Assembly (NCBI RefSeq): GCF_050920415.1
Contig: NZ_CP169309.1
Source: Escherichia coli
GTDB lineage: Bacteria > Pseudomonadota > Gammaproteobacteria > Enterobacterales > Enterobacteriaceae
Length of the DNA stretch: 64,000 nucleotides
Reading direction: 5' to 3' (one strand)
Shown: positions 1,897-49,169 of the stretch, piece by piece
How positions within the stretch are numbered: the first letter of the stretch is position 1
How the letters are laid out: each line of letters starts with the position of its first letter
Translations under genes and position numbers: made by a program
Notes under the pieces: generated by a model
What the model saw: the letters and a program-made list of their open reading frames with translations, nothing else
Told to the model about the DNA's origin: nothing
The model's database searches: none

Positions 1897-2348
1897 GTAT
1901 CCCCACCTGTTGGTTTACCGGTTAACAGCCATATCGGGTCGCAACCAAGAACATTTGCCAGTGGGATAAGCATACTGATAGTTGGTTCATACTCTCCGCT
2001 CTCCCACTGGATGATGATTTCTTCATCGAGATCGAGCAGCCTGGCGAGTTCGGCGGTTGTTAAGCCGCAGGCTTCGCGTTGGGTGCGAAGGTTAACCAGC
2101 CAGCCTTTAGGGAAGGATTGTTTTTGTTGTGCAGGAGAAGCCGCAGATAGAGCATATTCATGGATAAATTCCATTACCTCAATGCCCAGTTCCTTTGAGC
2201 GAGCACAATCCAGAAGATGGAATGTGCGTACAGCACTTAGCAAATTTGCAATATTTAATGCAAAGGAATCAAGTTCTAAGCCTTCAAGCGTAACACAGCC
2301 GCAGTTGATAAAATTAGTTGTTTCTGGAGTTGCTTTTAGTGTCTTCAT
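1887..2348 (-). CDS. Unknown N-terminal domain fused to a C-terminal XRE-type helix-turn-helix
   Basis: The C-terminus GLTTAELARLLDLDEEIIIQWESGEYEPTISMLIPLANVLGCDPIWLL is a classic HTH_XRE. It is the first gene behind a near-consensus promoter. Confidence 0.7.
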   Translation of the reverse strand: MKTLKATPETTNFINCGCVTLEGLELDSFALNIANLLSAVRTFHLLDCARSKELGIEVMEFIHEYALSAASPAQQKQSFPKGWLVNLRTQREACGLTTAELARLLDLDEEIIIQWESGEYEPTISMLIPLANVLGCDPIWLLTGKPTGGDTCA

Positions 2349-2353
2349 ATACC

Positions 2354-2399
2354 CACCAACAATTTTAAATTGAATTTAATCAAGTTATAATTGATGGTG
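2354..2399. promoter_or_regulatory. Inverted repeat (possible operator) in the leader of the HTH gene
   Basis: caccaacaatt (2354-2364) and aattgatggtg (2389-2399) form 11-nt arms with one mismatch. The repeat lies between the promoter and the ATG at 2348. Confidence 0.35.
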
Positions 2400-2401
2400 C
2401 G

Positions 2402-2430
2402 ATATTATGCTTTGAGAAATAGGCTGTCAA
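2402..2430 (-). promoter_or_regulatory. Sigma70 promoter (PL-like position) driving 1887..2348
   Basis: On the minus strand: TTGACA (2430..2425), a 17-nt spacer, then TAATAT (2407..2402). Confidence 0.5.
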
Positions 2431-2460
2431 GAAAAAATTGATATCGTGTGTTTTAGGCAG

Positions 2461-2481
2461 AAAAAAACGGGCAAAGCCCGT
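2461..2481 (-). terminator. Intrinsic terminator just downstream of cI
   Basis: On the minus strand: ACGGGC-TTT-GCCCGT hairpin followed by a T7 run. It lies 13 nt after the cI stop. Confidence 0.5.
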
Positions 2482-2493
2482 TAAAATCAAAGA

Positions 2494-3189
2494 CTAACCA
2501 AATCTGTTTATATTGAATGGTACTGATGAGATCACTTTAGACTGGATATAAAGCAGAGCTAACCCCTCTTTTTCGATGCTCCATGGTTGATAATTGGGGT
2601 TATCAGATAACACCATGATTTTGCTTCCAATTTTTTGAAGTCTTTTCACGTAGCATTCTCCATCAAAACAAAATGCATAAATGCCATCGCCATCAAAATA
2701 AGTTACTGTCTTATCAAGAAAAAGAAGGTCGCCAGGTGAGATTGTGGGAGCCATACTGTCTCCTCTGGCGTTACCTATTTCTATATTTTTGAATGCCCGA
2801 TTTCCAACAAGGCGTCGGGCATATTCAGGATCAAGTTCTATTGAGCGCACTACATCTATCAAGTCACCACGGACATGAGTTCCATCACCGCAACTAAACT
2901 CAACATCAAGGACATTAAACACGACGCTATCTGTTCTTGTCTGGTGTTTCTCTTGCGAGGAAAAGGTTGGTGAGGAGTCTTCACCTAAGAACCAGGATTG
3001 TGGATAACCGCTAATCTCGGATAAATGCGCGAGCTTATCACTCCGTGGAAATGTTTTTCCTGTTGTCCAGTACTGCACTGATTGCGCACTCACACCTAAC
3101 TTGCGGGCCAGTTGAGCCTGAGTCCATCCTTTTGCTTTCAGCATCGCGGCTATTCGATTTTCCGTGTTTTTGACGTTCTTCATGACCAA
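2494..3189 (-). CDS. cI: cI-type prophage repressor (HTH plus S24/LexA-like autopeptidase)
   Basis: N-terminal HTH (GWTQAQLARKLGVSAQSVQYW). The C-terminal S24 motifs GDSMAPT and YVKRLQ are present. Divergent from a cro-like gene. Confidence 0.9.
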   Translation of the reverse strand: MVMKNVKNTENRIAAMLKAKGWTQAQLARKLGVSAQSVQYWTTGKTFPRSDKLAHLSEISGYPQSWFLGEDSSPTFSSQEKHQTRTDSVVFNVLDVEFSCGDGTHVRGDLIDVVRSIELDPEYARRLVGNRAFKNIEIGNARGDSMAPTISPGDLLFLDKTVTYFDGDGIYAFCFDGECYVKRLQKIGSKIMVLSDNPNYQPWSIEKEGLALLYIQSKVISSVPFNINRFG

Positions 3190-3316
3190 ATCCTGTGGGT
3201 TTCTTTACAAGGATAAATCTTTACTTGATTTTAGTGTATTCGATCCTTTTGCAACTTGCATGTTAATTTAAACTTGATGTATTCTTGATTTATAAAGTTA
3301 ATATTGGTGCTTTGTT
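3190..3316. promoter_or_regulatory. Divergent immunity control region (OR/PRM/PR-like)
   Basis: 127-bp AT-rich gap between cI and cro. CTTGAT occurs three times (3224, 3273, 3284) and once inverted in the PL-like region (2379-2384). Candidate PR is TTGCAT(3256)-18-TATTCT(3280). A candidate PRM -10 TAAAAT lies on the minus strand at 3233..3228. Confidence 0.4.
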
Positions 3317-3616
3317 ATGAAAGGAAATGATTACGACAAACTTCGTGCATTAATTGCGCAAAATGCCATAGCGCGAAATCTTGGTGTGACGCCGCAAGCG
3401 GTGAATCAGTGGTTTTCAAAAAACACAATTCCTGCTCGTTTCGTTTTACGCGTATGTGAAGTAGTTGCATGGAAGGTCACGCCACATGGCTTAAGGCCAG
3501 ATCTTTATCCTCACCCTGAAGATGGAATTCCTGATTCGTTACGCAAAATTTCAAATCCAAGCCTAGCGCGCACGGAAGATGGGCAGAGTGATTCATCAGA
3601 AATGTCCACGCGATGA
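3317..3616 (+). CDS. Cro/YdaS-like HTH regulator
   Basis: ARNLGVTPQAVNQWFSKNTIP is the YdaS/Cro-type HTH. It sits opposite cI. Confidence 0.75.
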   Translation: MKGNDYDKLRALIAQNAIARNLGVTPQAVNQWFSKNTIPARFVLRVCEVVAWKVTPHGLRPDLYPHPEDGIPDSLRKISNPSLARTEDGQSDSSEMSTR

Positions 3617-3692
3617 ACGGTTACTGAACGAAAAAAGAAAAGCCGGGCCGCACTCCGTCAGCCCGACTTATTCTGATTAGTAAGGGGATTTC

Positions 3693-4547
3693 ATGATGAT
3701 CAATAAACAAAAATTAGTCAACCCTGAAAACTTGCCAGTTATTGAGTGGCAGGGAGTACGTGTAGTTACCACCGAAACGTTGGCGGCGGGATATGGAACA
3801 ACGCCAATCCGTATACAACAGAACTACATTCGAAACGAAGATCGTTTCGTTGAGGGTAAACACTTTTTCAAAATCAGCGGTGATGAGCTGAAATCTTTCC
3901 GACTATCTTTTAGCGAGTCGGTTAATAAACATACAACATCACTTGTCCTCTGGACAGAACGCGGCGCTGCCCGCATGTCAAAAATCGTCGATACAGACGA
4001 GGCCTGGTTGTTCTTCGAAAAAATGGAGCAGGCGTATTTTCGTAAAGCAACGCCTTCTTCAAACACTATTCCAGACTTTGACGATCCGATCGCTGCTGCT
4101 GAAGCGTGGATTGAAGCCAAAAAATCCGAACGCCTTGCTCTCGGGTATGCAGAGCGTCAGGCTCGCTACATCAGCAAACTCGAAAGCCATCTCGCCGATG
4201 GCATCACTCCTGTGCAGTTCTGCAAACAGCTCAACGGTGTAAACACTCGTCAGATTAATGCGTTCCTTGAAGAGCGTAACTGGCTGTATGACGACCGTCC
4301 GGAGGCTATGTATCCGCGCTGGCGTGTAAAAGCGTATGCACGTGACCAATACCTGACTGAGCGTTCTGGGCAGGTTGAGCAGGAAAACGGGGAAATGCGC
4401 GAGATTTTCAAACCACTCCTGAAGAAAAAAGGTGCCGCCTGGTTATATCGCCATTATCTGAACGGCGAACTACCTATGAAGAAAACATGGGATGGGCAAT
4501 TTACCCATAACACTGAGCTCGCGAATCTTTTACAGGAGAGCAAATGA
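3693..4547 (+). CDS. Antirepressor-type protein (ORF6N/KilA-N-like N-terminus, KilAC/Ant-like C-terminus)
   Basis: N-terminus: LPVIEWQGVRVVTTETLAAGYGT...RNEDRFVEGKHFFKISGDELKSF. C-terminus: AEAWIEAKKSERLAL...ITPVQFCKQLNG. AAGGGGA SD. Confidence 0.7.
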   Translation: MMINKQKLVNPENLPVIEWQGVRVVTTETLAAGYGTTPIRIQQNYIRNEDRFVEGKHFFKISGDELKSFRLSFSESVNKHTTSLVLWTERGAARMSKIVDTDEAWLFFEKMEQAYFRKATPSSNTIPDFDDPIAAAEAWIEAKKSERLALGYAERQARYISKLESHLADGITPVQFCKQLNGVNTRQINAFLEERNWLYDDRPEAMYPRWRVKAYARDQYLTERSGQVEQENGEMREIFKPLLKKKGAAWLYRHYLNGELPMKKTWDGQFTHNTELANLLQESK

Positions 4548-4756
4548 TGCAAACCAAGACATGTGTAACTGGTGATGTCGATCTGAAACCTTGCCCGTTC
4601 TGCGGAAATCCGGAAGTACAACTCATTGAGGTGAAATATTTTCTGGATGGCGATGATGGTTATTACGTCGCATGTACTTGCTGTAACGCAAACCAGATTC
4701 CTGATTCGAAAGAACGTGCTGTTCATGACTGGAACCAGCGCGAAAACGCGGATTGA
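4544..4756 (+). CDS. Lar-family restriction-alleviation-like zinc-ribbon protein
   Basis: 70 aa with CPFCG...C.CC and a C-terminal HDWNQR. Resembles the Lar family (Rac Lar), recalled from memory. Start overlaps the upstream stop (ATGA). Confidence 0.55.
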   Translation: MMQTKTCVTGDVDLKPCPFCGNPEVQLIEVKYFLDGDDGYYVACTCCNANQIPDSKERAVHDWNQRENAD

Positions 4757-4792
4757 CGGCGAGTAGGTACAAAATGATCCGCAACCAACATA

Positions 4793-4821
4793 TTGATTCT
4801 GCAATTTCGGGACGTTACACT
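4793..4821 (+). promoter_or_regulatory. Promoter of c4-like cassette A
   Basis: TTGATT (4793-4798), 17 nt, TACACT (4816-4821). Identical hexamers and spacing recur in cassette B, inside a 64-nt block conserved at the nucleotide level. Confidence 0.5.
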
Positions 4822-4934
4822 GTTCCTGCACCTTATAAAGCGGGTGCCGGGGGTCGCAGCCCGGAATTGCATACGGCGATATATGACGCGCCAGCGTCTT
4901 TTTTATCGTCCGCGCTCACGCACGCCAGAATTAT

Positions 4935-5013
4935 GGTGGGCTGGGCAGGGGAGCCGAAAGGCTCGCCGGTTTCCGTATGCGCCGGTACTGCGAACCCTGT
5001 TCAGTTCACCACC
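4935..5013 (+). ncRNA. c4-like antisense RNA, copy A (~79 nt)
   Basis: Terminal stem GGTGG/CCACC and inner stem CAGGG/CCCTG. Hairpin GAGCC-GAAA-GGCTC. Loop tccgtatgc (4972-4980) complements gcatacgga (5052-5060) over the Rha SD. ctgcgaa (4988-4994) complements ttcgcag (5021-5027). Confidence 0.6.
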
Positions 5014-5070
5014 CATGAGTTTCGCAGCTCCGGTGGTGGAAGTTATCCATTGCATACGGAGGCTGCCATC

Positions 5071-5433
5071 ATGGCTACAGTCCCAACTTCCCCATACCTG
5101 AAAATCGAAGTCGTCAACGGCAAAGCTGTTATTTTCTCCCTGCATGTTGCCTGCCACTTTAAGCGCATGCACCAGAACATCGTCGACAAAATCGAGTATC
5201 TGAACTGCTCGCGTGAATTCTTCTCCCGTAATTTCATACCGGGTACTTACCACGTGTATGGCGATTCCCTGCGTGGTTATTACATCACCCTTGATGGCCT
5301 GATGATGCTTCAGCTTGGGTTAAGTCTGCGCACAATGCGGTACTACGAGAGCTGTATTGAAGCATTCCATGAGGCTGAAACCAACCTGAATCACACTGTT
5401 TTCCGTCGTAATCAATGGGAGGTGCGCCCATGA
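5071..5433 (+). CDS. Rha-family phage regulatory/antirepressor protein, copy A (121 aa)
   Basis: GGAGG (5058-5062) lies 8 nt before the ATG at 5071. The pattern VNGKAV.FSL.VA..F.K.H..IV.KI is Phage_pRha-like. The upstream in-frame 106 codons are interpreted as the RNA leader. Confidence 0.7.
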   Translation: MATVPTSPYLKIEVVNGKAVIFSLHVACHFKRMHQNIVDKIEYLNCSREFFSRNFIPGTYHVYGDSLRGYYITLDGLMMLQLGLSLRTMRYYESCIEAFHEAETNLNHTVFRRNQWEVRP

Positions 5434-5445
5434 TTCGCCAACATA

Positions 5446-5474
5446 TTGATTCTGCACTTTTGGGACGTTACACT
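5446..5474 (+). promoter_or_regulatory. Promoter of c4-like cassette B
   Basis: TTGATT (5446-5451), 17 nt, TACACT (5469-5474). Same arrangement as cassette A. Confidence 0.5.
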
Positions 5475-5587
5475 GTCTCTGCACCTTATAAAGCGGGTGC
5501 CGGGATTGGCGTCCTGAAATTCAATATAGAGCATAACCGCGCTCATGCGGTTTTTTCGTGTCATGAGCATTGCTACGCCCAAATTAT

Positions 5588-5666
5588 GGTGGGGCGTGCA
5601 GGGGCATCGCAAGATGCGCCGGGTTCTATGTTGACCGGTTACGCCAACCCTGTACGTCTCACCACC
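5588..5666 (+). ncRNA. c4-like antisense RNA, copy B (~79 nt)
   Basis: Same scaffold as A (GGTGG/CCACC, CAGGG/CCCTG). The hairpin is changed compensatorily to GCATC-GCAA-GATGC. ctatgttga (5626-5634) complements tcaacatag (5704-5712). acgccaa (5641-5647) complements ttggcgt (5674-5680). Confidence 0.6.
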
Positions 5667-5723
5667 TCTGTGATTGGCGTCCCATGTGGTGAGTTCTTTG
5701 AATTCAACATAGGGGCTGTCACC

Positions 5724-6287
5724 ATGACTACTCTCCCAACCCTCTCTCAACCTGAAATTGCGATCGTTGATGGTCAGGCTGTTACATCTTCTTTGGCTGT
5801 TGCTGACTTCTTCTCTAAACGTCATGACGATGTTCTGAAAAAGATCCGCATTTTGGATTGTTCTCCAGAGTTTTGTGCCCGCAATTTTGCGGAGACATCA
5901 ATTTTGGTACACCAGCCCAACGGCGGTACTCGCAAACTTCCTTGCTACCACATCACCCGCGATGGCTTCGCGTTCCTGGCAATGGGCTTTACTGGCAAAC
6001 GTGCAGCCCGGTTCAAAGAGGCATACATCAACGCCTTTAACCAGATGGAGAAGAATTTATCTGGTGCTGACGCGGTTGATATGTCAGCTGTTGCACGAAA
6101 CGCCAGAGGCGTATACCTGCATTTGCGTGAAATCCATCAAATCTGGATAAGCCAGCTTTATCCAATGCTTAAGGCCGTTGAGTCACCGCTGGCTGGCAAA
6201 CTGTACGACCGTGTAGGTGATGCTGTTTTTGGTGCTGCACTTGTTGATTCCAGACTGAATGGTTCTGACAAGGAGGTGCGCCCATGA
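5724..6287 (+). CDS. Rha-family phage regulatory/antirepressor protein, copy B (187 aa)
   Basis: IVDGQAVTSSLAVADFFSKRHDDVLKKIRIL...ITRDGFAFLAMGFTGKRAARFKEAYINAFNQME is a typical Rha (Phage_pRha) domain. The ATG at 5724 follows an AGGGG SD. Confidence 0.8.
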   Translation: MTTLPTLSQPEIAIVDGQAVTSSLAVADFFSKRHDDVLKKIRILDCSPEFCARNFAETSILVHQPNGGTRKLPCYHITRDGFAFLAMGFTGKRAARFKEAYINAFNQMEKNLSGADAVDMSAVARNARGVYLHLREIHQIWISQLYPMLKAVESPLAGKLYDRVGDAVFGAALVDSRLNGSDKEVRP

Positions 6288-6517
6288 TCCGCCACATCGT
6301 TAATTCCCTGTATCACCGATACAACCGTTGCCCCCGGGTGGGGCAGTGGTTCACCACCAGCAACGGCCACGTTCTGCGGGTTTGCCTGGTCAATACAGAA
6401 AGCCAGAAGGTTGTCTGCCAGGTTCAGGGACGTACTCATACCCTGAGTTATCCGCTGGTGGCGTTTCAGTCCGGAAAAATGTTTAAACGCCTGGGAGGTG
6501 GCTATGCGTCCGTCTGA
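6284..6517 (+). CDS. Hypothetical 77-aa protein
   Basis: Starts at the third copy of the GGAGGTGCGCCCATGAT junction. Overlaps the O-like gene start. Confidence 0.45.
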   Translation: MIRHIVNSLYHRYNRCPRVGQWFTTSNGHVLRVCLVNTESQKVVCQVQGRTHTLSYPLVAFQSGKMFKRLGGGYASV

Positions 6518-7412
6518 TCTTCTGCTCGATTTTGGACATCCGGTTGCTTATTACCCTGGGCTCGTTAAATACATGGGAAGTCCGCACGCTGTTATTTTCT
6601 TTGGTCAGATTTTTTACTGGCAGGATAAAGCACATGCAGCGGAAGGCGTACATAAAACGCGTGAAGAGATACAACACGAAACCGGACTTACATTTGAACA
6701 ACAGGCTGTAGCGCGTAAGCATCTTGTGTCCAGAGGCATTTTGGTTGAAACCAACAAGCGTCTTGAGCACAAAATGTTCTACCGTATAGATTGTGAGCGC
6801 CTTAATGAAATTATCAATGAAAACAATCAGTTTTCCCGAAATGGGGAAACCCGTTTTCGGGAAACTGTAAAACCCAATTTCGCGGAGGAGGGAAAGCCTT
6901 CACCGCGGACACGGGAAACCCCTCGCCGCGGAGAAGGGAAAACCAATTTCGATCTTACAGAGAATACAACAGAGATTACTTCAGAGAATACTACAGAGAG
7001 TAAAAACACTATTGGCGCATCCGCTGACGCGTCTGCACCAGCACGTTCTGCCCGACAGGAATATTCACCGGAATTTGAACAGGCCTGGCAGGAATATCCC
7101 AAACGTGCTGGTGGTAATTCCAAGTCAGCAGCCTTCAAAGCCTGGAAAGCCCGTATCAGGGAGGGAATAAAACCGGAGACCATGCTTGATGGTGTGAAGC
7201 GGTATGCCGCCTGGGTACGTGCTACAGGAAATACCGGCACACAGTTCGTGAAGCAGGCTGCGACGTTCTTTGGACCCGATCGTCACTTCGAAGATTACTG
7301 GCAACAGCCAGCCGCTCCCGGAGGTGGGCGACAGCGACAGGTCGATGTCCTGGCTGGCCTGGGAGCCATGTCTGACAAATTCGGTAAATCCAGTGACAAA
7401 CTGACATTCTGA
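6504..7412 (+). CDS. Replication initiator, O-like (contains the presumed origin)
   Basis: GGGAGGTGG SD before the ATG at 6504. Sits ahead of the DnaC-like and DnaB-like genes. Iteron cluster lies inside the gene, as in lambda O. The C-terminal motif EFEQAWQEYPKR is common in phage replication proteins. Confidence 0.65.
   Translation: MRPSDLLLDFGHPVAYYPGLVKYMGSPHAVIFFGQIFYWQDKAHAAEGVHKTREEIQHETGLTFEQQAVARKHLVSRGILVETNKRLEHKMFYRIDCERLNEIINENNQFSRNGETRFRETVKPNFAEEGKPSPRTRETPRRGEGKTNFDLTENTTEITSENTTESKNTIGASADASAPARSARQEYSPEFEQAWQEYPKRAGGNSKSAAFKAWKARIREGIKPETMLDGVKRYAAWVRATGNTGTQFVKQAATFFGPDRHFEDYWQQPAAPGGGRQRQVDVLAGLGAMSDKFGKSSDKLTF
6830..6995. repeat. Putative ori: GGGAAA(N)C iterons plus an A/T-rich direct-repeat tract inside the O-like gene
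   Basis: GGGAAAC-type repeats at 6843, 6859, 6890, 6913 and 6936. Inverted gttttccc at 6830. CCAATTTCG occurs twice. cagagaatac occurs twice (6958, 6982). Confidence 0.5.
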
Positions 7413-7422
7413 GGTGACAGCG

Positions 7423-8301
7423 ATGATGACGATTAACCAACGTGAGAAACAAACAAGACTACAGGCGCGAATGGATGAGTTACGGGCAGAGATTGCATTT
7501 GCTCAGAATGGCGAAAAGCCATGGCCTTACCGCGCCTGCCGGGAATCTGAAGGGGTTGGATGCTGCGAAAAACACGGTAAATATCGTACGCATATACTGG
7601 TGTGGGATGATCGGCAGGGGGGCGCTGTCTCAAAAATTTCCCGCTGTCCGGAGTGTCTGGTGGATGAAATGGATGTGACACATCGGACTCTGGTTGCAAT
7701 GAAAGCTGATGTGCTGATTGAGAATGCTGGTGTTGCCTGTAGGTTTCGCGACTGTGAGTTTGAAAACTATCAGGAGATTAACTCTGATGCAGCCAGAAAT
7801 CTTGCTGCCTGCCGCCGCTATGCAGAGAGCTGGGAGGATGTTCTGGCTAACGGTACCAGTCTTGTTCTGACAGGCAGTTGTGGTACCGGAAAAAATCATC
7901 TGGCTGTGGCTATGGCAAAACACATCATCCGTAACCATCTGGCCAGTGTGGAGATTACTGATGTGATGCGCCTTACCCGTGCTGTGAAAAACTGCTGGCG
8001 GAATGACAGCGAAAAAACAGCGGATGAAGTTATTGAGCATTATGCGTCATTGGATTTGCTGATCATCGACGAAGTCGGCGTTCAGTTTGGCAGCGCGGCT
8101 GAAATGGCTATTTTGCAGGAAATTATCAATGCCCGGTACGAAAGCATCCTGCCCACCATCCTGATCAGCAACCTTTCACCGGAAGAGTTGTGGGCGTTCA
8201 TCAGCCCCCGCATTGCCGACAGGATCACAGACGGGGGACGCAACTGGTTGTCGTTTAACTGGCCCAGCTATCGTGCGCATATTGGAGGTGTGGCTGCATG
8301 A
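7423..8301 (+). CDS. DnaC/IstB-like AAA+ helicase loader
   Basis: Walker A GSCGTGKNHLAVAMA and Walker B LLIIDEVG. N-terminal Cys-rich region. Start is uncertain (GTG 7414, ATG 7423 or 7426). Confidence 0.8.
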   Translation: MMTINQREKQTRLQARMDELRAEIAFAQNGEKPWPYRACRESEGVGCCEKHGKYRTHILVWDDRQGGAVSKISRCPECLVDEMDVTHRTLVAMKADVLIENAGVACRFRDCEFENYQEINSDAARNLAACRRYAESWEDVLANGTSLVLTGSCGTGKNHLAVAMAKHIIRNHLASVEITDVMRLTRAVKNCWRNDSEKTADEVIEHYASLDLLIIDEVGVQFGSAAEMAILQEIINARYESILPTILISNLSPEELWAFISPRIADRITDGGRNWLSFNWPSYRAHIGGVAA

Positions 8302-33792: not shown

Positions 33793-35883
33793 ATGGCAGT
33801 AAAGATTTCAGGTGTCCTGAAGGACGGAGCGGGTGAGCCTGTCGTAAACTGTGCGATTGAATTGCGTGCCAGAAGAACCAGTCCGACAGTTGTGGTTAAT
33901 ATTGTGGCAACCTGTCTTACGGGAAGTGATGGTGGGTATACTATTAATGCTGAGCCGGGATTTTATGATGTATTTTTGTCCCGCTCAGGGCATCCTCCTG
34001 TAAAGGCGGGGGAAATTTATGTTGCACCGACAGATGAGCCGGATACGCTGAATGCTTTTCTGGATGCACCAAAGGAGGGTGATTTACGCCCTGAGGTAAT
34101 GAAGCGTTTTGAGGAAATGATAAATACCGTTTTTCGCTTGTCTGAGCAGGTGGTCAGTGACAGGGAGAGAGCAGAAACAGCTGCTGATGATGCAATCAAT
34201 GCAGCAACATCTGCGGCGGTTAGTAAGGATGAGGCAGAAGAGCTAAAAAATCAGACACAGCAGAGCGCCGAAGCTGCAGCCGGAAACGCACAGCAGACGG
34301 CACAGGATGTGACGACAACCGCAACGGCCCGTGATGATGCGGAACGTTTTGCGGGTGAGGCAGAAAACAGCGCACAGTCATCAGGCACATCGCGGGATGA
34401 ATCAGTCGATGCCGCCGAACGTGCCCGCCTTTATCATAATGCCGCATCATCAGCTGCAACCAGCGCGGAAAATGCAGCAAATGCTGCACTCGGGCATGAA
34501 AATAACGCTGCCGAATACGCCCGACAGGCTAAAGACAGCCAGGATGCAGGTGCAGACAATGCGCAGGAAGCGAAACAGTACAGGGATGAGGCGCAGCAGA
34601 TAGTTGATGACCTGAATGCAACAAATGCCAGCACGACAGAAAAAGGTCTGGTGCAACTGTGTAGTGATACGGACAACGACAGCGATGAACTGGCTGCCAC
34701 GCCAAAGGCTGTCAAAGCCGTCATGGACGAAACGAAAACAAAAGCGCCACTGGACAGCCCGGCCTTCACCGGCACCCCAACCACCCCAACCCCACCGGAT
34801 GATGCCGCCGGTCTGGAAGCAGCGAACGCAGCGTTTGTGCGCAAACTGCTTGCTGCGCTGGTTGGCTCATCGCCGGAAGTTCTGGACACCCTGAACGAGC
34901 TGGCAGCGGCGCTGGGCAATGACCCGAACTTTGCGACGACAATCACAAACGCGCTGGCAGGCAAACAACCGCTTAATGACGTCTTAACGGCAATCAGCGC
35001 ACTGACGCAACGGGCAGATAATCTTCTGTACTTCAATACGGACGGGAATGCCTCACTGTCTCCGCTGTCAGAGAAGGCCCGCGCATTACTGGCGCATGAC
35101 ACGGCTGAAGCCATGCGCACGGAGCTTGAGCTGAACGCGGCTGCGACGATGGAACCCCAGAGTGATATCCGTGACCGCACACCGGGCAGGCTGGCCCTGT
35201 CCGGGATGTATGGGTTTGGACAGGCATTCACCAGCGCCGAAGCTCTGTCATTTAACGGACAGGCTGATTTCGTTATATGGCTGCAGACAGTCACCCCGGG
35301 GCGTTATGCGGTCAGTATTGCGGACTCCTCCACGCTGCTGAAGGGGACCACGAAATTTAACGGTATCATTGATGTGATGTGGTCACCGTCTGATAACGAC
35401 GAATCAGACACGGCGCGTAAATTCAAAACGCTGCTGTACTACAACCAGTATTACGAGGATGAGCACAGCATACATTGTATGCGTTATCGCTACAGTGGTA
35501 ACAGCTGGAATGCAACATCAAGCCTTATTGTGTATGACGGCAACTCCCTGGCATATCTGATGTCCTCAACCGCCGGTAATGGTCCGTTCTCATATTACAA
35601 ATACCCGGCCGTCGGTGTGCCGATAATGGCGGTATATCAGGGAGAAAGTTTTGGTGAAAATGCTTCTCTGGGACTCGGTGATACTGTGCCGGGTTCCCGT
35701 CTTGGTCCTCTGGCCATGAGTGCACAGGTTAGTGATACAGGGACATACGCATCCTCACCGCAGGTTGTGATTGGCGGTGCCGGTGAATACAACTTCCCCG
35801 GTCGTTACACGGCGCTTTCGGGCCTGGGTAACAATTATGGTACTCAGCGTGGCTTTATCGGTCTTTTTGTACGCATTGAGTAA
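33793..35883 (+). CDS. stf: Side tail fibre protein (Stf-like)
   Basis: N-terminus MAVKISGVLKDGAGEPV. Ala-rich repeat shaft. The conserved TTEKGLVQL...ATPKAVKAVMDE...LNELAAALGNDPNFA block is present, followed by a divergent C-terminal domain. Confidence 0.85.
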   Translation: MAVKISGVLKDGAGEPVVNCAIELRARRTSPTVVVNIVATCLTGSDGGYTINAEPGFYDVFLSRSGHPPVKAGEIYVAPTDEPDTLNAFLDAPKEGDLRPEVMKRFEEMINTVFRLSEQVVSDRERAETAADDAINAATSAAVSKDEAEELKNQTQQSAEAAAGNAQQTAQDVTTTATARDDAERFAGEAENSAQSSGTSRDESVDAAERARLYHNAASSAATSAENAANAALGHENNAAEYARQAKDSQDAGADNAQEAKQYRDEAQQIVDDLNATNASTTEKGLVQLCSDTDNDSDELAATPKAVKAVMDETKTKAPLDSPAFTGTPTTPTPPDDAAGLEAANAAFVRKLLAALVGSSPEVLDTLNELAAALGNDPNFATTITNALAGKQPLNDVLTAISALTQRADNLLYFNTDGNASLSPLSEKARALLAHDTAEAMRTELELNAAATMEPQSDIRDRTPGRLALSGMYGFGQAFTSAEALSFNGQADFVIWLQTVTPGRYAVSIADSSTLLKGTTKFNGIIDVMWSPSDNDESDTARKFKTLLYYNQYYEDEHSIHCMRYRYSGNSWNATSSLIVYDGNSLAYLMSSTAGNGPFSYYKYPAVGVPIMAVYQGESFGENASLGLGDTVPGSRLGPLAMSAQVSDTGTYASSPQVVIGGAGEYNFPGRYTALSGLGNNYGTQRGFIGLFVRIE

Positions 35884-35897
35884 TGAGGAAATCAGGC

Positions 35898-36470
35898 ATG
35901 AAAATCAGAGCGGTGAAAGGCATCAGAAACGCACATTATCTTGAAAATGGTGCGGTTGACTGCGAGGTGTTATTTGAAGGTGAAACGGAGTTCGCCCTGT
36001 ATACTGCCATACAGGATGATATGGCCCCGACAGGCCAGCATGTCTGGCAGGAGCTGCAAAGCGGGAAATGGGGCGAAATCGCCCCGTTCACCGTCACGCC
36101 GGAACTTATTGCAGCGGCAAAGGATGCCAAAAGGCGGGAAATTGAGGCATGGCGCGACAGTCAGGAAAACGTTGAGTTTATTTTCACGTTTGATGGCCGT
36201 CGTTTTGATGGCGGAAAAACCTCGCAGTCACGCCTTGCGCCCGTGGTTGCAACAGCGCAGGCCGGACTGCTTCCGGAGGGTTTTTTCTGGACTGATGCGG
36301 ATAATAACAACGTCGTACTGACCAGGGAGAAACTTATTGCGCTGAACGATGCCATGATGGTGGCCATGGTGGCGGAGGGCTTTAAAATCCACGAACGCCA
36401 GCGCGAGATGAAGGAACAACTGAATAATCTGAATGACTTGGCTTCAATTCGAGCGCTTGACGTTACGTAA
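35898..36470 (+). CDS. Tail fibre assembly/accessory protein
   Basis: Immediately follows stf. Start is either ATG 35883 (TAATG overlap) or ATG 35898 (GAGGAA SD). Confidence 0.55.
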   Translation: MKIRAVKGIRNAHYLENGAVDCEVLFEGETEFALYTAIQDDMAPTGQHVWQELQSGKWGEIAPFTVTPELIAAAKDAKRREIEAWRDSQENVEFIFTFDGRRFDGGKTSQSRLAPVVATAQAGLLPEGFFWTDADNNNVVLTREKLIALNDAMMVAMVAEGFKIHERQREMKEQLNNLNDLASIRALDVT

Positions 36471-36550
36471 TAAAAATCACTGATATGCCAGCCCCTTGTA
36501 AAGATATTGATCAGGGTTGTTTTGATGTGAATTAGATTTACATGGGGTGC

Positions 36551-36611
36551 TTTGGGGCATGTATGGGACAGAAATGTCTGTTTTGGGACATTTTGGGGCA
36601 TGGTTGGGACA
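36551..36611. repeat. Direct repeats near attR (possible Int arm-type sites)
   Basis: TTGGGGCATG occurs twice (36552, 36593). TGGGACA occurs three times (36564, 36584, 36605). Confidence 0.35.
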
Positions 36612-36731
36612 CTATAACACATACGAACTTAACCGAATTTCGTATGGTGTTAATTTTTAACGTGTTGAATACACTAGAGAAAGCGAATGCTCTTGGGCGT
36701 TCTTTAGTGATTTTTAAAATAGTCCTGTCAT

Positions 36732-36824
36732 GCAGTTAAAGTGGCGGGCATACTCTTCAAGGCTGGTGATCCCCAACCGCACCCATTTAGGATGCGACCA
36801 TTGTGGCAGACCGATGTAAATCAT
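36732..36824 (-). pseudogene. yecE: yecE 5' fragment (first 31 codons), truncated by prophage insertion
   Basis: [31 protein letters not shown] matches the YecE N-terminus (from memory). The frame then continues MTGLF-stop in phage DNA. The ATG overlaps the yecD stop (ATGA). Confidence 0.75.
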
Positions 36825-40683: not shown

Positions 40684-40717
40684 TGAGGCCTGCTAAACAG
40701 CAAAACGGAGACGCGTG

Positions 40718-41239
40718 ATGGCTATTATTCTCGGCATTGACCCGGGTTCGCGCGTGACCGGCTATGGCGTCATCCGCCAGGTGGGCAGGCAGCTGTCCTA
40801 CCTGGGTAGCGGATGTATACGCACCAAAGTAGATGATTTACCGTCTCGTCTTAAGCTCATCTATGCGGGCGTGACGGAAATCATCACCCAGTTCCAGCCT
40901 GATTATTTCGCCATTGAACAAGTCTTTATGGCTAAAAATGCCGACTCGGCCCTGAAGCTGGGGCAGGCGCGTGGCGTCGCGATTGTGGCGGCGGTGAATC
41001 AGGAATTACCGGTATTTGAATACGCGGCACGTCAGGTAAAGCAAACGGTGGTAGGTATTGGTAGTGCCGAAAAAAGCCAGGTGCAGCATATGGTTCGCAC
41101 CTTGCTGAAACTCCCCGCTAATCCGCAGGCGGATGCCGCTGATGCGCTGGCAATTGCCATCACCCACTGCCACGTTAGTCAGAATGCGATGCAGATGAGC
41201 GAATCGCGGCTGAACCTGGCGAGAGGGCGACTGCGTTAA
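40718..41239 (+). CDS. ruvC: Holliday junction resolvase RuvC
   Basis: [19 protein letters not shown]..., 173 aa. Confidence 0.95.
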
Positions 41240-41240
41240 G

Positions 41241-41843
41241 TTATACCGCCTCGGTCAATTCAGGCTGAGGCGTTTCTACTCCCTCCGCATGAATCAACAC
41301 CAAACCCGGATGATGCCACAAACTGGCTGGTGTTACGGTTTTACGCTCCCACGGAATCGAACCTAAAAACCAGAATTTCCAGAAAGTGAGTTTTGCGTTC
41401 GGATTGCTATTTAGCAGTTCTCCAAACGTCTCTATTTCACCCACCGGAATACATAACGCCTCTTTATAAATATCAAAAACGAATTTTGAGCAGAACTGGC
41501 GGGAAGATTCGTATTTAAAGCCGGTGTGGTAGAGCTTATGCAACCGTCCGGGGACCTTTTCGACCAGAGCAAGTTTTTGCTCTGCGGTTAAACCTCCTGC
41601 GAGGCGGCGAACACCGTAGCGTTGATCGGTCGACCGTTCAATAAATCGTGACAAAGTTGTGATTGTGGAGAGCGGAACTCGACTCTCCGCAACCAGGTAA
41701 TCATCACCGTCATGTCCGATGATTATCCCCACATGGTTGCTCCAGCATTTCGAGGCTGCAGAGATTTGCCCAAACAGGCGAGCACCGATGCAGGTAAAAA
41801 CAATATCACCGGTTTCATATTTAACTGGGTAATTTATTTTCAC
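41241..41843 (-). CDS. yebB: YebB (NlpC/P60-like, DUF830)
   Basis: 200 aa. Sits between ruvC and ruvA as in K-12. Confidence 0.85.
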
Positions 41844-41936
41844 TATATCAATCCATTATTTATATATAAAACAGCATCTATCTTTCGTGATGGTAAAGCA
41901 TTAGCATTGTATTGTAATCATGACAAGGAATGTTTT

Positions 41937-42575
41937 ATGCGGTTATTTATTAATGTGATAATTATAGTTTCGATCAGTCAATGCGTGAATGTATTTGCTC
42001 AAGATAATGTCATTCGCTATCCCTGGCGATATGGACGTATTTCTTTAAATGAGAATAATGAGTTTGTGCCTCAAATTATTCATATGCGTGATGATATCTA
42101 CGGCGTGGGTGAAGCTGGTGCAAGCCTTAACGATGCGAGAATGGCGCAAAGTGGTGTCACCGTGAGGCTTAGCGTTATACAGCAGGGGCAGGTGGTGAAT
42201 GCTTTACTGGATTTCTACAATAGCAATAATCAACCTGCTTATATATTTGAAGGTGGTTTGATGCCTTGCAATAAAGCCTTTGACATCACAACAAGCAACA
42301 TTGTCCTTGATGGGATGTGTGGAATTTATGATGGGGTCGATGGCTGGCAAGTTATTCCTGCGGGTGAGCATTATAAAGAATCGTTTTCACTCACTCAGGC
42401 TTTTGAATTCTTGCCGGGAAAACATCATTATAAAATTAATGCCGGAAGTTTTATCATCAGAGTCGGGGATGATATTTTTGCAAGAGAAGATGCCGAAAGC
42501 ATTCTTTTTGATTTGATTAACTGGCGATATGGCTATGTGCAAAAAGTTATGAAAGGGTGTCGAAGGGGGATTTGA
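41937..42575 (+). CDS. Hypothetical secreted protein (212 aa), islet gene 1
   Basis: ATG at 41937. Signal peptide MRLFINVIIIVSISQCVNVFA. AT-rich. The longer track ORF (from 41712) would overlap yebB. Confidence 0.6.
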   Translation: MRLFINVIIIVSISQCVNVFAQDNVIRYPWRYGRISLNENNEFVPQIIHMRDDIYGVGEAGASLNDARMAQSGVTVRLSVIQQGQVVNALLDFYNSNNQPAYIFEGGLMPCNKAFDITTSNIVLDGMCGIYDGVDGWQVIPAGEHYKESFSLTQAFEFLPGKHHYKINAGSFIIRVGDDIFAREDAESILFDLINWRYGYVQKVMKGCRRGI

Positions 42576-42760
42576 TGGCAGGATATTATGCTCTGTATGA
42601 ATACTCAGGCGCTGACATAATTGATGAGTATGATATTTACTCAAACCAGGTCTCGATTGATCTTAATGGTGACGAGTTAGCGCATACGGAGTCATATCAG
42701 TGGCGTATTGATAGTGGAATGATCCCGCAAAAATTCAGCGTTCAGGGACTCGCTGAATGA
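42575..42760 (+). CDS. Hypothetical small acidic protein (61 aa), islet gene 2
   Basis: GGGGGA SD. Its ATG overlaps the gene 1 stop (TGATG), suggesting translational coupling. Confidence 0.45.
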   Translation: MAGYYALYEYSGADIIDEYDIYSNQVSIDLNGDELAHTESYQWRIDSGMIPQKFSVQGLAE

Positions 42761-42797
42761 TTAGTCCTCTACCTGCTTGCCAGATACAGAGGCGCGG

Positions 42798-43382
42798 ATG
42801 AATTTATCAAGCGTATTCAATCAGCTTTTAATCTCATTTGCTCTTGCCGGGACGTTGATATTAAGCATCTATCTCATGGAAGCTCACTACCCACGTTTCA
42901 GGAAGCCAATTGCGCTCTTTTACTTCTTTTTAGCGATTTATACCAGTTATGCTGCCGTTCAGGAGTATGAGTACCACCGCAATAGCTTGACTACGCTCGC
43001 AAAAGTTTCTTCGATTCGTTATACCAGTAATTTTAAGCGTAGCGCCTCGCACTCCTGCAATTTACTGCGGGGAGGAAGGATTGATTGCTCGGGGCTGTAT
43101 GCCTATGACCTGACCTGGCAGATTGACGGTAAGACATGGAATTTGCATGTTGAGGACAAGCGTATAAAACCAGGAATCACCATGTGCGTGAAGGTTGTAA
43201 AAGATCGCCCCGCCATCGGGAAACCCTGTGAAAACGTGTTTTTCAATATCAGCCCTTTGCCGATTCTGATAGCTATATGGGCAATAAGCGCATTTATATT
43301 TGCGGTCTTACTCCTTCACCAACTAAAAAAATGCCGCGAATGGAAGCACGCCAGCAAGGAACGTGGAAAAATTGGCCATTAG
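42798..43382 (+). CDS. Hypothetical inner-membrane protein (194 aa), islet gene 3
   Basis: Two N-terminal TM helices and one C-terminal TM helix flank a soluble domain (DUF3592-like topology). GAGG SD. Confidence 0.6.
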   Translation: MNLSSVFNQLLISFALAGTLILSIYLMEAHYPRFRKPIALFYFFLAIYTSYAAVQEYEYHRNSLTTLAKVSSIRYTSNFKRSASHSCNLLRGGRIDCSGLYAYDLTWQIDGKTWNLHVEDKRIKPGITMCVKVVKDRPAIGKPCENVFFNISPLPILIAIWAISAFIFAVLLLHQLKKCREWKHASKERGKIGH

Positions 43383-43482
43383 AAGTCAAAGAAAGAGTGC
43401 GATGTAAGGTGATTCATAGAAAATTTCAGATACCGTGAGCCAAAGGATTATCAGTTCTGAAATGATTTAATATCATCCCTCG

Positions 43483-43498
43483 CTGGATATCTATCCAG
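43483..43498. promoter_or_regulatory. LexA (SOS) box of ruvAB
   Basis: CTGGATATCTATCCAG fits CTG-N10-CAG. It lies 52 nt upstream of ruvA. Confidence 0.8.
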
Positions 43499-43549
43499 CA
43501 TTTTTTTATCATACAGCATTATCTTTGATTCATTACGCAGGAGCGTCAT

Positions 43550-44161
43550 GTGATAGGCAGACTCAGAGGCATCATCATTGAAAAACAACCCCCGCTGGTA
43601 TTAATTGAAGTGGGCGGCGTAGGCTATGAAGTGCATATGCCGATGACCTGTTTTTATGAACTCCCTGAAGCGGGTCAGGAAGCGATCGTTTTCACCCACT
43701 TTGTGGTGCGTGAAGACGCGCAACTGCTGTACGGTTTTAACAATAAACAAGAGCGCACGTTGTTCAAAGAGTTGATCAAAACCAACGGCGTTGGGCCTAA
43801 ACTGGCATTGGCAATCCTCTCCGGAATGTCAGCGCAGCAGTTCGTTAATGCCGTTGAGCGTGAAGAAGTCGGGGCTCTGGTGAAACTGCCGGGTATTGGC
43901 AAAAAAACCGCCGAACGCTTGATTGTCGAAATGAAAGACCGATTTAAAGGTTTACATGGCGATCTCTTTACGCCAGCTGCCGACCTGGTACTCACGTCAC
44001 CTGCCAGCCCGGCGACCGACGATGCTGAACAGGAAGCGGTTGCCGCGTTGGTGGCGCTGGGCTATAAACCACAAGAAGCAAGCCGGATGGTGAGCAAAAT
44101 CGCTCGCCCTGACGCCAGCAGTGAAACATTAATTCGTGAAGCCCTGCGCGCCGCGTTATGA
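43550..44161 (+). CDS. ruvA: Holliday junction branch migration complex subunit RuvA
   Basis: GTG start. [27 protein letters not shown]..., 203 aa. Confidence 0.95.
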
Positions 44162-44166
44162 GGTAA

Positions 44167-45180
<1,014 letters not shown>

Positions 45181-45221
45181 GTTGAATAAGGCATTCAAGC
45201 CGCTTCCGACATTGGCGATAA

Positions 45222-47387
<2,166 letters not shown>

Positions 47388-47391
<4 letters not shown>

Positions 47392-48143
47392 GAGCGATCA
47401 TTTCCCCGACGCAAAACAATTCGTCCCTGTAAATCGTGACGATGATTATGATGATGGCGATAGATACCCAGTTGTTCAGCACCACGAGGACCAAACATAG
47501 AAATAAACTCCGGATGCAGGGAAACAACTTCCGGTGTGCCGGAACAACAAATGTGGTGATTCAGGCAAAGCACTTCATCGGTTTTTGCCATTACCAAATG
47601 CAGATCGTGAGACACCATTAAAACGCCACAATCCAGTTCGCGACGCAGTTGGTCAATAAGGTCATACAGCGCTACCTGACCATTTACATCCACGCCCTGA
47701 GTGGGTTCATCCAGCACTAATAATTGCGGTCGATTTAACAATGCTCGTGCTAACAGTACACGCTGCGTTTCGCCACCAGAGAGCTTTTGCATCGGTGCGT
47801 TAATAAGATGCCCGGCCTGGACACGTTTCAGTGCAGGCAAAATATCTTCTTTATGTGTTCCAGGGCGTAAGCGTAAAAAACGGTTTACGGTCAGTGGCAA
47901 AGTGGTGTCGAGATACAGCTTCTGCGGTACATAGCCGATGCGCAGTTTTCCGTTGCGCTTGATAACCCCTTCATCGGGTGTTACCAGCCCGAGCACTACC
48001 CGTACCAGTGTCGACTTACCTGCGCCATTTGGCCCAAGTAAAGTCAAAATTTTTCCAGGTTTAAGTTCCAGCGACACATCAGAGAGGACGCGGCGTTGGC
48101 CAAAAGAAACCGAGACATTTTCCAGGGAAACCAGACTTGTCAT
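47388..48143 (-). CDS. znuC: Zinc ABC transporter ATP-binding protein
   Basis: Walker [10 protein letters not shown], signature LSGGE, Walker B LLVLDEP. Confidence 0.95.
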
Positions 48144-48169
48144 GTTAATTTTAGTCTTGCAGTAGTCAT

Positions 48170-48192
48170 GAAATGTTATAATATCACACTTC
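48170..48192. promoter_or_regulatory. Zur box in the znuA/znuCB divergent promoter region
   Basis: GAAATGTTATAATATCACACTTC resembles the Zur palindrome GAAATGTTATAnTATAACATTTC. Confidence 0.65.
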
Positions 48193-48221
48193 TCATATTC
48201 ATTACGATGATTGGTCGCATT

Positions 48222-49154
48222 ATGTTACATAAAAAAACGCTTCTTTTCGCAGCATTATCTGCCGCTCTCTGGGGCGGTGCAACTCAGGCCGCAGATGCCG
48301 CCGTTGTCGCTTCGCTTAAACCCATTGGGTTCATCGCATCTGCCATTGCTGCTGGGGTAACAGAAACGGAGGTTTTACTTCCTGACGGCGCTTCAGAACA
48401 TGATTATTCACTGCGTCCATCAGATGTAAAACGCTTACAGAACGCGGACTTAGTTGTTTGGGTTGGCCCGGAGATGGAAGCGTTCATGCAAAAACCGGTA
48501 AGTAAATTACCTGAAGCCAAACAGGTAACGATTGCGCAGCTAGAGAATGTGAAACCGCTGCTGATGAAAAGTATTCACGGAGATGATGATGATCACGACC
48601 ACGCAGAAAAAAGTGACGAAGATCACCATCACGGCGATTTCAACATGCATCTTTGGCTTTCCCCAGAGATAGCGCGGGCTACAGCGGTTGCAATCCATGG
48701 AAAATTAGTGGAACTTATGCCGCAAAGTCGAGCCAAACTTGACGCCAACCTGAAGGATTTTGAGGCACAATTAGCCTCAACCGAAAAGCAGGTTGGTAAC
48801 GAGCTCGCGCCGCTCAAGGGGAAAGGTTATTTCGTTTTTCACGATGCTTACGGCTATTTCGAAAAACAGTTCGGACTGACACCGCTTGGTCATTTTACCG
48901 TTAACCCTGAGATTCAACCTGGCGCGCAGCGTTTACATGAAATAAGAACACAGTTGGTTGAGCAAAAAGCAACCTGCGTTTTTGCTGAGCCACAGTTCAG
49001 GCCAGCGGTCGTTGAGAGCGTCGCACGAGGGACATCCGTTCGTATGGGAACGTTGGATCCCCTGGGGACGAATATCAAACTGGGTAAAACAAGCTATTCA
49101 GAATTCCTGAATCAATTAGCCAACCAGTATGCGAGCTGCCTGAAAGGAGATTAA
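48222..49154 (+). CDS. znuA: Periplasmic zinc-binding protein
   Basis: ATG at 48222 gives [23 protein letters not shown]. His/Asp-rich loop [21 protein letters not shown]. Confidence 0.95.
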
Positions 49155-49169
49155 TGAGGAAGTGATTAC

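Follow-up and report, generated by a model that had tools for sequence, protein, structure and literature searches.

What does an Escherichia coli chromosome gain when the short gap between yebB and the SOS promoter of ruvAB is filled by unfamiliar, AT-rich genes? This question is raised by a 64,000-nucleotide stretch of an E. coli chromosome (contig NZ_CP169309.1, hereafter the window), in which nudB, yebC, ruvC, and yebB are followed by a variable interval and then by ruvA and ruvB. Our analysis indicates that the interval is probably a rare haplotype, imported into a variable chromosomal slot, that carries two genes unrelated in function. The first, termed gene A, would be an orphan immunity gene of a family that is otherwise linked to type VI secretion system (T6SS) effectors that are M35-type metallopeptidases. 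The second, termed gene B, would encode an independent protein of the cell envelope.

In E. coli K-12, yebB and ruvA are separated by 274 bp whose sole content is the 21-codon gene yobI, which agrees with the short gap described in an initial annotation of the window. Nineteen of the 5,426 complete E. coli genomes carry the additional DNA, each with a single copy that is always chromosomal, so that the comparison of intervals proposed in that annotation reveals a rare segment. Its impression of AT-rich, foreign-looking DNA is likewise borne out by a GC content of 0.418 for positions 41850 to 43440, compared with 0.504 for the whole window and 0.52 to 0.55 for ruvC, ruvA, and ruvB. The open reading frames (ORFs) are found exactly where it had placed them. 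Neither a mobility gene nor a flanking repeat had been noticed, and our checks concur: the interval holds no mobility gene and no Rfam match, and the repeats around it are only 12- to 17-mers at chance level. The features of a mobile island, namely an integrase or transposase, flanking direct repeats, and a tRNA target, are lacking at the locus. From position 41200 to 43700, the window is 100% identical to the chromosome of strain MFDS1022581 (NZ_CP169399.1). The features of the region are as follows.

40715–41239: ruvC
41241–41843, minus strand: yebB
41530–41843, minus strand: divergent 5′ half of yebB, part of the putatively imported haplotype, with the left recombination breakpoint near 41530
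41844–41936: intergenic region between the divergently oriented yebB and gene A, with an AAGGA ribosome-binding site before the ATG at 41937
41937–42575, plus strand: 5′ part of gene A, encoding the signal peptide and most of the immunity-family domain and ending at a premature stop caused by a frameshift
42540–42541, plus strand: site of the 1-bp deletion that splits gene A, located by alignment with the homologous loci L003 and L004
42541–42760, plus strand: 3′ part of gene A in another frame, which includes the 61-aa ORF at 42575–42760 and encodes the motif (Y/R)SNQVSIDLNGD
42798–43382, plus strand: gene B, encoding a predicted inner-membrane protein of 194 aa
43383–43470: noncoding DNA after gene B; similarity to K-12 returns near 43471, about 12 bp before the LexA box
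43483–43498: LexA box of ruvAB, CTGGATATCTATCCAG, the conserved right edge of the variable slot
43550–44161: ruvA

The interval had been described as a compact operon of three genes, and we find that it holds two. The ORFs at 41937 to 42575 (ORF1) and 42575 to 42760 (ORF2), predicted to encode proteins of 212 aa and 61 aa, are pieces of gene A, which when intact is a single gene of 274 codons. In an alignment that includes L003 and L004, the window lacks one T after position 42540 and reads GTGC-AAAAAG where the other carriers read GTGCTAAAAAG. When this T is put back at 42540/42541, ORF1 and ORF2 fuse into one ORF of 274 aa. Direct reading of the sequences revealed a single uninterrupted ORF for gene A in six other E. 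coli copies, and the other twelve E. coli carriers have two annotated coding sequences in the interval together with the extra base. The ORF is also intact, at 273 to 274 aa, in five loci from other enterobacterial lineages. The annotation is therefore corrected from three coding sequences to a two-gene locus with a frameshift. The TGATG overlap that had been taken as a junction between two genes is a by-product of this frameshift, and the supposed acidic cytoplasmic protein of 61 aa is the C-terminal piece of the predicted exported product, complete with a conserved motif of its family.

The deletion is common to the window and NZ_CP169399.1, and may be either a real loss or an assembly error. 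As the sequences stand, it removes the conserved C-terminal 60 residues, and gene A is for this reason probably inactive in the strain from which the window derives. The start of the gene also calls for revision. RefSeq begins gene A at an ATG at position 41712, which creates a 132-bp overlap with the oppositely oriented yebB. In other genera, the homologues begin at the signal-peptide methionine that corresponds to position 41937, as does the gene in the annotation of E. coli R32_14_1F. The RefSeq start is probably too far upstream, and the promoters of both yebB and gene A presumably lie between 41844 and 41936.

The gene A product has a hydrophobic N-terminus (residues 1 to 22), and a signal peptide is predicted for residues 1 to 21, with cleavage after VFA and before QD. 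Two of its cysteines (Cys111 and Cys128) align with a C...C pair that is typical of its family. These features suggest a protein that is exported by the Sec pathway, resides in the periplasm, and carries a disulfide bond. Scans with Pfam, NCBIfam, PADLOC, and PHROGs returned nothing usable for gene A, and a profile search of the PDB found no relative.

A function is suggested by remote homologues. A profile built from the close homologues of gene A, when searched against 1.84 billion representative proteins, yielded 41 matches of 190 to 315 aa at E ≤ 0.001, with E values as low as 8e-17; for 40 family members, hmmsearch with this profile gave E values from 8e-17 to 1e-4. Most of the 41 proteins are 270 to 315 aa long, apart from P0006, which is gene A's own relative, and three multidomain repeat proteins. 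Those remote homologues that were aligned have hydrophobic N-termini. Alignment of the close profile with a profile of 28 remote members by hhalign gave a probability of 99.9% and an E value of 1.8e-33 over 251 columns. Close and remote members have motifs in common along their entire length, namely (K/R)Y.YG near the N-terminus, then C..F.ITT.NI.LD...C, W.EI.AG, LN..Y.FLPG...Y.I, and finally IR(S/T)NQV.I.I(D/N)G. Thus, gene A belongs to this family as judged by full-length homology, a predicted export signal, and the cysteine pair.

The remote homologues share a genomic context. In nine independent groups of them (from E. coli draft genomes, Buttiauxella, Citrobacter farmeri, the yddH/nhoA locus of E. 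coli, E. coli PAR, and four metagenomic contigs), a protein of 186 to 287 aa with an HExxH motif is encoded directly upstream in every case (9/9). Wherever the contig is long enough, a VgrG gene lies upstream of the HExxH gene and PAAR or TssF is encoded nearby. The HExxH proteins carry the invariant motifs CHELSHF, GGxGTxD, and NxYNxExYF, exemplified by GGMGTDD and NAYNIEKYF. Their profile matches the M35 peptidyl-Lys metalloendopeptidase of PDB entry 1g12 (E 3e-4) and, weakly, the Pfam family Aspzincin_M35, and NCBI names relatives of these proteins “peptidase M35”. Aspzincin_M35 effectors of the T6SS with the same HELSH motif have recently been described (bioRxiv 10.64898/2026.09.28.754971), and a second M35 effector of E. 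coli is toxic in the periplasm only (PMC7904677).

The activity of one such pair has been established in E. coli PAR, where M35-PAR (AKO63_2955) kills E. coli upon targeting to the periplasm and the cells are rescued by co-expressed AKO63_2956 (PMC10673891, Wang et al. 2023, Commun Biol 6:1195). The corresponding PAR locus lies in a T6SS island at the metV tRNA genes and comprises a frameshifted VgrG gene, a gene for a 262-aa HExxH protein (RS15260), and a gene for a protein of 308 aa (RS15265). From the gene order and the split VgrG gene, we infer that AKO63_2955 and AKO63_2956 are RefSeq AKO63_RS15260 and AKO63_RS15265; the separate “VgrG” and “DUF2345” genes of PMC10673891 are probably explained by the frameshift in the VgrG gene of PAR. 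RS15260 is 35 to 38% identical to the set of effectors described above. RS15265 is 31 to 37% identical to the remote gene A homologues and scores 52 to 62 bits against the close ones, including the ORF of the window. Indeed, the PAR immunity protein finds gene A when used as a tblastn query against the window. The two proteins are alike in full-length homology, N-terminal signal sequence, cysteine pair, and motifs. They differ in length (308 versus 274 aa), are only about 21 to 27% identical, and occur in different settings, because the AKO63_2956 family directly follows an M35-like periplasmic effector, whereas gene A stands in a core-genome slot beside ruvA without an effector, VgrG, or PAAR.

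Several further observations concern the effector-linked loci themselves. The PAR region (L027, positions 40770–49429) contains two VgrG-M35-immunity modules in tandem, the first with an intact VgrG gene and a short immunity-family gene (203 aa), the second with the frameshifted VgrG gene. The module linked to yddH/nhoA, which consists of PAAR, VgrG, “peptidase M35”, and a hypothetical protein (L022 and L023), occurs in about 640 of 5,426 complete E. coli genomes (approximately 12%), and L022 has two immunity-family paralogues in tandem. About 130 of these roughly 640 genomes match just the downstream, immunity-family half, which suggests that orphan copies of the superfamily exist elsewhere in E. 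coli. The VgrG-M35-immunity locus from E. coli draft genomes (L012) has no match in the complete E. coli genomes in either the near or the distant search mode.

A periplasmic zinc-metallopeptidase effector of the T6SS that is paired with a periplasmic immunity protein has a counterpart in logic in Pseudomonas aeruginosa, where the C-terminal metallopeptidase of VgrG2b is toxic in the periplasm and is neutralized by the binding of PA0261, a Dsb-dependent periplasmic protein (PMC6899460, Wood et al. 2019). The VgrG2b effector class corresponds to DUF4157; immunity to it is encoded by a small ORF, the product of which is a lipoprotein in Enterobacteriaceae. A search of the PDB with the M35-like effector profile gave no match to the solved structure of the VgrG2b C-terminal domain, and VgrG2b-PA0261 appears to be a different sequence family from the M35 effectors and gene A.

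In its own locus, gene A stands apart from any effector. A tblastn search of the 64-kb window with VgrG, three M35 effectors, Hcp, TssB, and TssC found nothing, and the loci of the close gene A homologues, all of which lie between yebB and ruvA, hold no effector, VgrG, or T6SS gene. Accordingly, in no close locus is gene A directly downstream of a cognate HExxH effector. The gene is nevertheless under purifying selection, with ratios of nonsynonymous to synonymous substitution rates (dN/dS) of 0.06 to 0.31 in all pairs with measurable dS, as is expected of an orphan immunity gene, that is, a family member maintained by selection without an effector in its locus. Because no effector, VgrG, or T6SS gene is found in its loci, we consider an orphan immunity gene the most likely identity of gene A. 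Orphan T6SS immunity genes are otherwise known from Vibrio cholerae, where they form orphan immunity arrays, and from the acquired interbacterial defence clusters of Bacteroidales. Gene A resembles these in being an immunity-family gene without an effector, patchy in distribution and horizontally exchanged. It differs in being a single gene, rather than an array beside a T6SS or on a mobile element, that occupies a fixed core slot and moved through homologous recombination of its flanks.

On this interpretation, the intact gene A product would be carried to the periplasm by its Sec signal peptide, where it would bind and block an M35-type effector arriving from a competitor; in the strain of the window, the loss of the C-terminal 60 residues would probably have abolished this activity. 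Several points weigh against the proposal as a whole. Gene A is only about 20 to 28% identical to any effector-linked relative, T6SS immunity is mostly highly specific, and no cognate effector was found. The AlphaFold2 model, derived from a shallow alignment, has a mean predicted local distance difference test score (pLDDT) of 29.6 and is unusable as structural support. The signal peptide and the periplasmic location are read from the amino acid sequence, the equivalence of the published PAR proteins with the RefSeq genes is deduced from gene order, and the copy of gene A in the window is frameshifted. For gene B, a dN/dS of 0.7 to 1.1 within Escherichia and the loss of a C-terminal tail, both taken up below, count in the same direction.

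How the two genes came to lie beside ruvA is indicated by the flanks of the interval. A clean insertion between yebB and the ruvAB promoter had been envisaged. However, alignment shows that divergence from K-12 begins within yebB, at about position 41530, and a query covering the divergent 5′ part of yebB (41540–41860) matches the 19 islet-bearing genomes and no others, so that the 5′ half of yebB has been exchanged in all carriers (19/19). Over its first 100 codons, yebB shows a dN of 0.158 and saturated dS relative to K-12, and a dN of 0.023 and a dS of 0.71 relative to a Pseudocitrobacter-like contig (L021); the 3′ half of the gene is E. coli-like (dN 0.004). That the interval ends within yebB on one side and at the ruvA promoter on the other is as expected for homologous recombination. 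Moreover, the dS of gene A relative to Pseudocitrobacter is about 0.6, lower than the values of 1.0 to 1.5 for ruvA, ruvB, and ruvC, as would be expected if recombination in the flanks had brought the segment into Escherichia. We therefore describe the event as a haplotype replacement, in which DNA from another enterobacterial lineage would have entered through crossovers inside yebB and just upstream of the LexA box.

The same site varies in other genera. Among 5.8 billion proteins, close homologues form six clusters for gene A and nine for gene B; close homologue loci number two among 185,579 species representatives and two in a metagenome scan. All close homologues of A and B that could be placed are located in the slot between yebB (or ruvC) and ruvA, the gene content of which differs across Enterobacteriaceae as follows.

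Enterobacterium L005: yebB, A, B, ruvA
Pseudocitrobacter vendiensis, L006, and L007: yebB, A, ruvA
Escherichia sp. E1V33: yebB, A, an unrelated 228-aa membrane protein, ruvA
L021: yebB, A, a 243-aa protein, a 224-aa protein, B, a Sel1 protein, ruvA
Superficieibacter and metagenomic contig L029 (39% identity): ruvC, B, ruvA

The fullest form of the slot was observed on the Pseudocitrobacter-like contig L021 (Logan SRR18370191, positions 1972–7819). A secreted protein of 331 aa with a sub-threshold match to DUF4034 is encoded there between ruvC and yebB; after yebB come gene A, a secreted protein of 243 aa, a Cys-rich protein of 224 aa with four transmembrane (TM) segments, gene B, and a secreted Sel1-repeat protein, all on the same strand, before ruvA. 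The 224-aa protein is homologous to the 228-aa product of Escherichia sp. E1V33, and all of these slot products would be proteins of the envelope. The other slot genes of L021 show no similarity to the T6SS loci gathered in this analysis. A broader idea is conceivable, and we hold it to be doubtful: the slot could long have served Enterobacteriaceae as a store of orphan immunity genes, in which gene B and the others represent new immunity families directed at contact-dependent effectors and gene A has been kept as an orphan since before the genera diverged.

One carrier has a different left flank. In E. coli 24A16CRGN010 (L004, positions 1–1455), a gene for a PstS-family protein (PBP_like_2) lies directly to the left of a 3′-truncated yebB, and the same arrangement is found in L005 (positions 3753–5246), with a protein identity of 66%. 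The gene B allele of L004 (189 aa) is shared with E. fergusonii. This suggests that L004 stems from a more extensive or a separate import, for which E. fergusonii may have been the route.

Gene B is predicted to encode an inner-membrane protein. One strong and one weaker hydrophobic segment lie at its N-terminus, four conserved cysteines mark the domain of about 90 aa that comes next, and basic residues follow the TM segment at the C-terminus. The weaker N-terminal segment corresponds to the sole N-terminal TM segment of the homologues in L005 and L029. Because of the positive-inside pattern, the Cys-rich domain is predicted to be periplasmic, where it could form disulfide bonds. Most homologues continue into a basic cytoplasmic tail of about 65 aa that is absent from the Escherichia copies, and the noncoding DNA at 43383 to 43470 may be a remnant of this lost 3′ end. 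The same gene occurs directly upstream of ruvA in several genera, as if it were an old resident of this position. Its dN/dS is 0.12 to 0.18 between genera and 0.7 to 1.1 within Escherichia, where substitutions are few. A resemblance to DUF3592 had been proposed, and the two are alike in being membrane proteins with a soluble domain between hydrophobic helices. However, there is no match to PF12158 at E ≤ 1; at this threshold Pfam returned only sub-threshold hits to DUF202, DUF4131, and DUF4181. A profile search of the PDB found no relative of gene B, NCBIfam, PADLOC, and PHROGs gave nothing usable, and the AlphaFold2 model (pLDDT 50.9, with the soluble domain below 50) is unusable. An immunity-like role for gene B as well could be proposed only through guilt by association.

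The distribution of the two genes argues against a functional tie between them. Gene A occurs without gene B in P. vendiensis and L006, gene B occurs without gene A in Superficieibacter and in the metagenomic enterobacterium L029, and in Escherichia sp. E1V33 the gene next to gene A encodes an unrelated membrane protein. Since each gene occurs with or without the other, A and B are not a pair or an obligate module, and gene B would be functionally separate from gene A. The reading of the products as envelope proteins agrees with our predictions. From the accompanying idea of an envelope-acting toxin and immunity system, the immunity part is made plausible by the membership of gene A in a family of T6SS immunity proteins, and the toxin part falls away, as the tblastn search of the window revealed no toxin in or near the interval. 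Phage exclusion finds no backing in the PADLOC search, which matched no family for A or B at E ≤ 1, or in the PHROGs search, which gave nothing below E 0.02.

Two other explanations of the locus deserve consideration next to an imported orphan immunity gene. Gene A might be a former immunity protein that now serves a resident function in the periplasm, such as the inhibition of another zinc protease, or some envelope function. We judge this unlikely, even though it would explain the long retention of the gene at a fixed core-genome position without an effector. In its favor are the shared syntenic location of gene A in three or more genera, a dN/dS of about 0.25, the low identity to effector-linked relatives, and the failure to find a cognate effector. 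A resident function is difficult to reconcile with the lack of gene A in 99.65% of the complete E. coli genomes, with its occurrence in just two of the 185,579 species representatives, or with its dispensability in this strain, in which it is frameshifted; such a patchy distribution fits competition genes rather than housekeeping genes.

Alternatively, A and B could be functionless passengers, brought in by recombination that was selected or drifted for other reasons, and now decaying. The frameshift in the window, the rarity of the segment, and the truncation of gene B in Escherichia with its elevated within-genus dN/dS are consistent with decay, as is strain 2017.17.01CC, which has a further truncation of gene B and a one-codon deletion in gene A. 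However, all E. coli carriers but one (18/19) and every other lineage have an intact gene A, and the low dN/dS values of gene A and, between genera, of gene B speak for constraint, so we regard this explanation as improbable. A self-contained three-gene module for envelope toxin and immunity or for phage exclusion, as initially imagined, is compact, is confined to one strand, and has only envelope-associated products in its favor, but is highly implausible given that its small cytoplasmic protein is a piece of gene A split off by the frameshift, that A and B occur independently, that gene A resembles immunity proteins and not toxins, and that neither PADLOC or PHROGs matches nor a toxin-like domain in the interval were found.

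In the neighboring SOS operon, the LexA box of ruvAB is present at 43483 to 43498, where it had been reported. Its 16-mer is identical in nine of nine lineages compared and lies 67 to 70 bp before the ruvA start; the SOS box and the promoter-like hexamers of ruvAB are the same as in K-12. Because the SOS operator and promoter are untouched, views on ruvAB regulation are unlikely to change. Between gene B and ruvA, the search for a terminator revealed just the LexA palindrome and a T-run, which are also present in K-12. Read-through from the islet into ruvAB is possible, and nothing suggests that it would differ in kind from that of yobI in K-12. A second match to CTG-N10-CAG, CTGTATGAATACTCAG, within gene A (42593–42608) was considered as a LexA site and rejected; it is probably not one, since about 0.5 chance matches are expected in the interval and its residues are not conserved in homologues.

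Elsewhere in the window, a gene for an IS110-family transposase (IS621) lies just 3′ of ruvB (45449–46429). Owing to a G-run that has one base less than its counterpart in NZ_CP169399.1, the ORF of the window ends at 46201 (250 aa), and the coding sequence in that record specifies 326 aa. This difference and at least one nearby single-nucleotide polymorphism indicate that the window is not identical to the NZ_CP169399.1 record. At about 35200 to 36824, as annotated in L001, prophage genes (tail-fibre and DUF4376) border directly on a DUF72 (yecE-like) pseudogene that is truncated and lies beside yecD, which indicates a prophage junction a few kilobases upstream of aspS.

The locus is a modest finding and not a new toxin system. 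The T6SS immunity family to which gene A belongs has one experimentally characterized case and no family-level annotation. The analysis gives a probable role to this family of “hypothetical proteins”, for which there is no Pfam or NCBIfam model, as the immunity partner of M35-like T6SS effectors; metallopeptidase effectors of this kind are encoded in approximately 12% of complete E. coli genomes. It also reveals that, in several genera, a divergent member of the family has been kept by itself in a slot of the core genome. If gene A does protect against M35 effectors, it would exemplify the spread of resistance to T6SS attack through homologous recombination of flanking core genes rather than through mobile elements.

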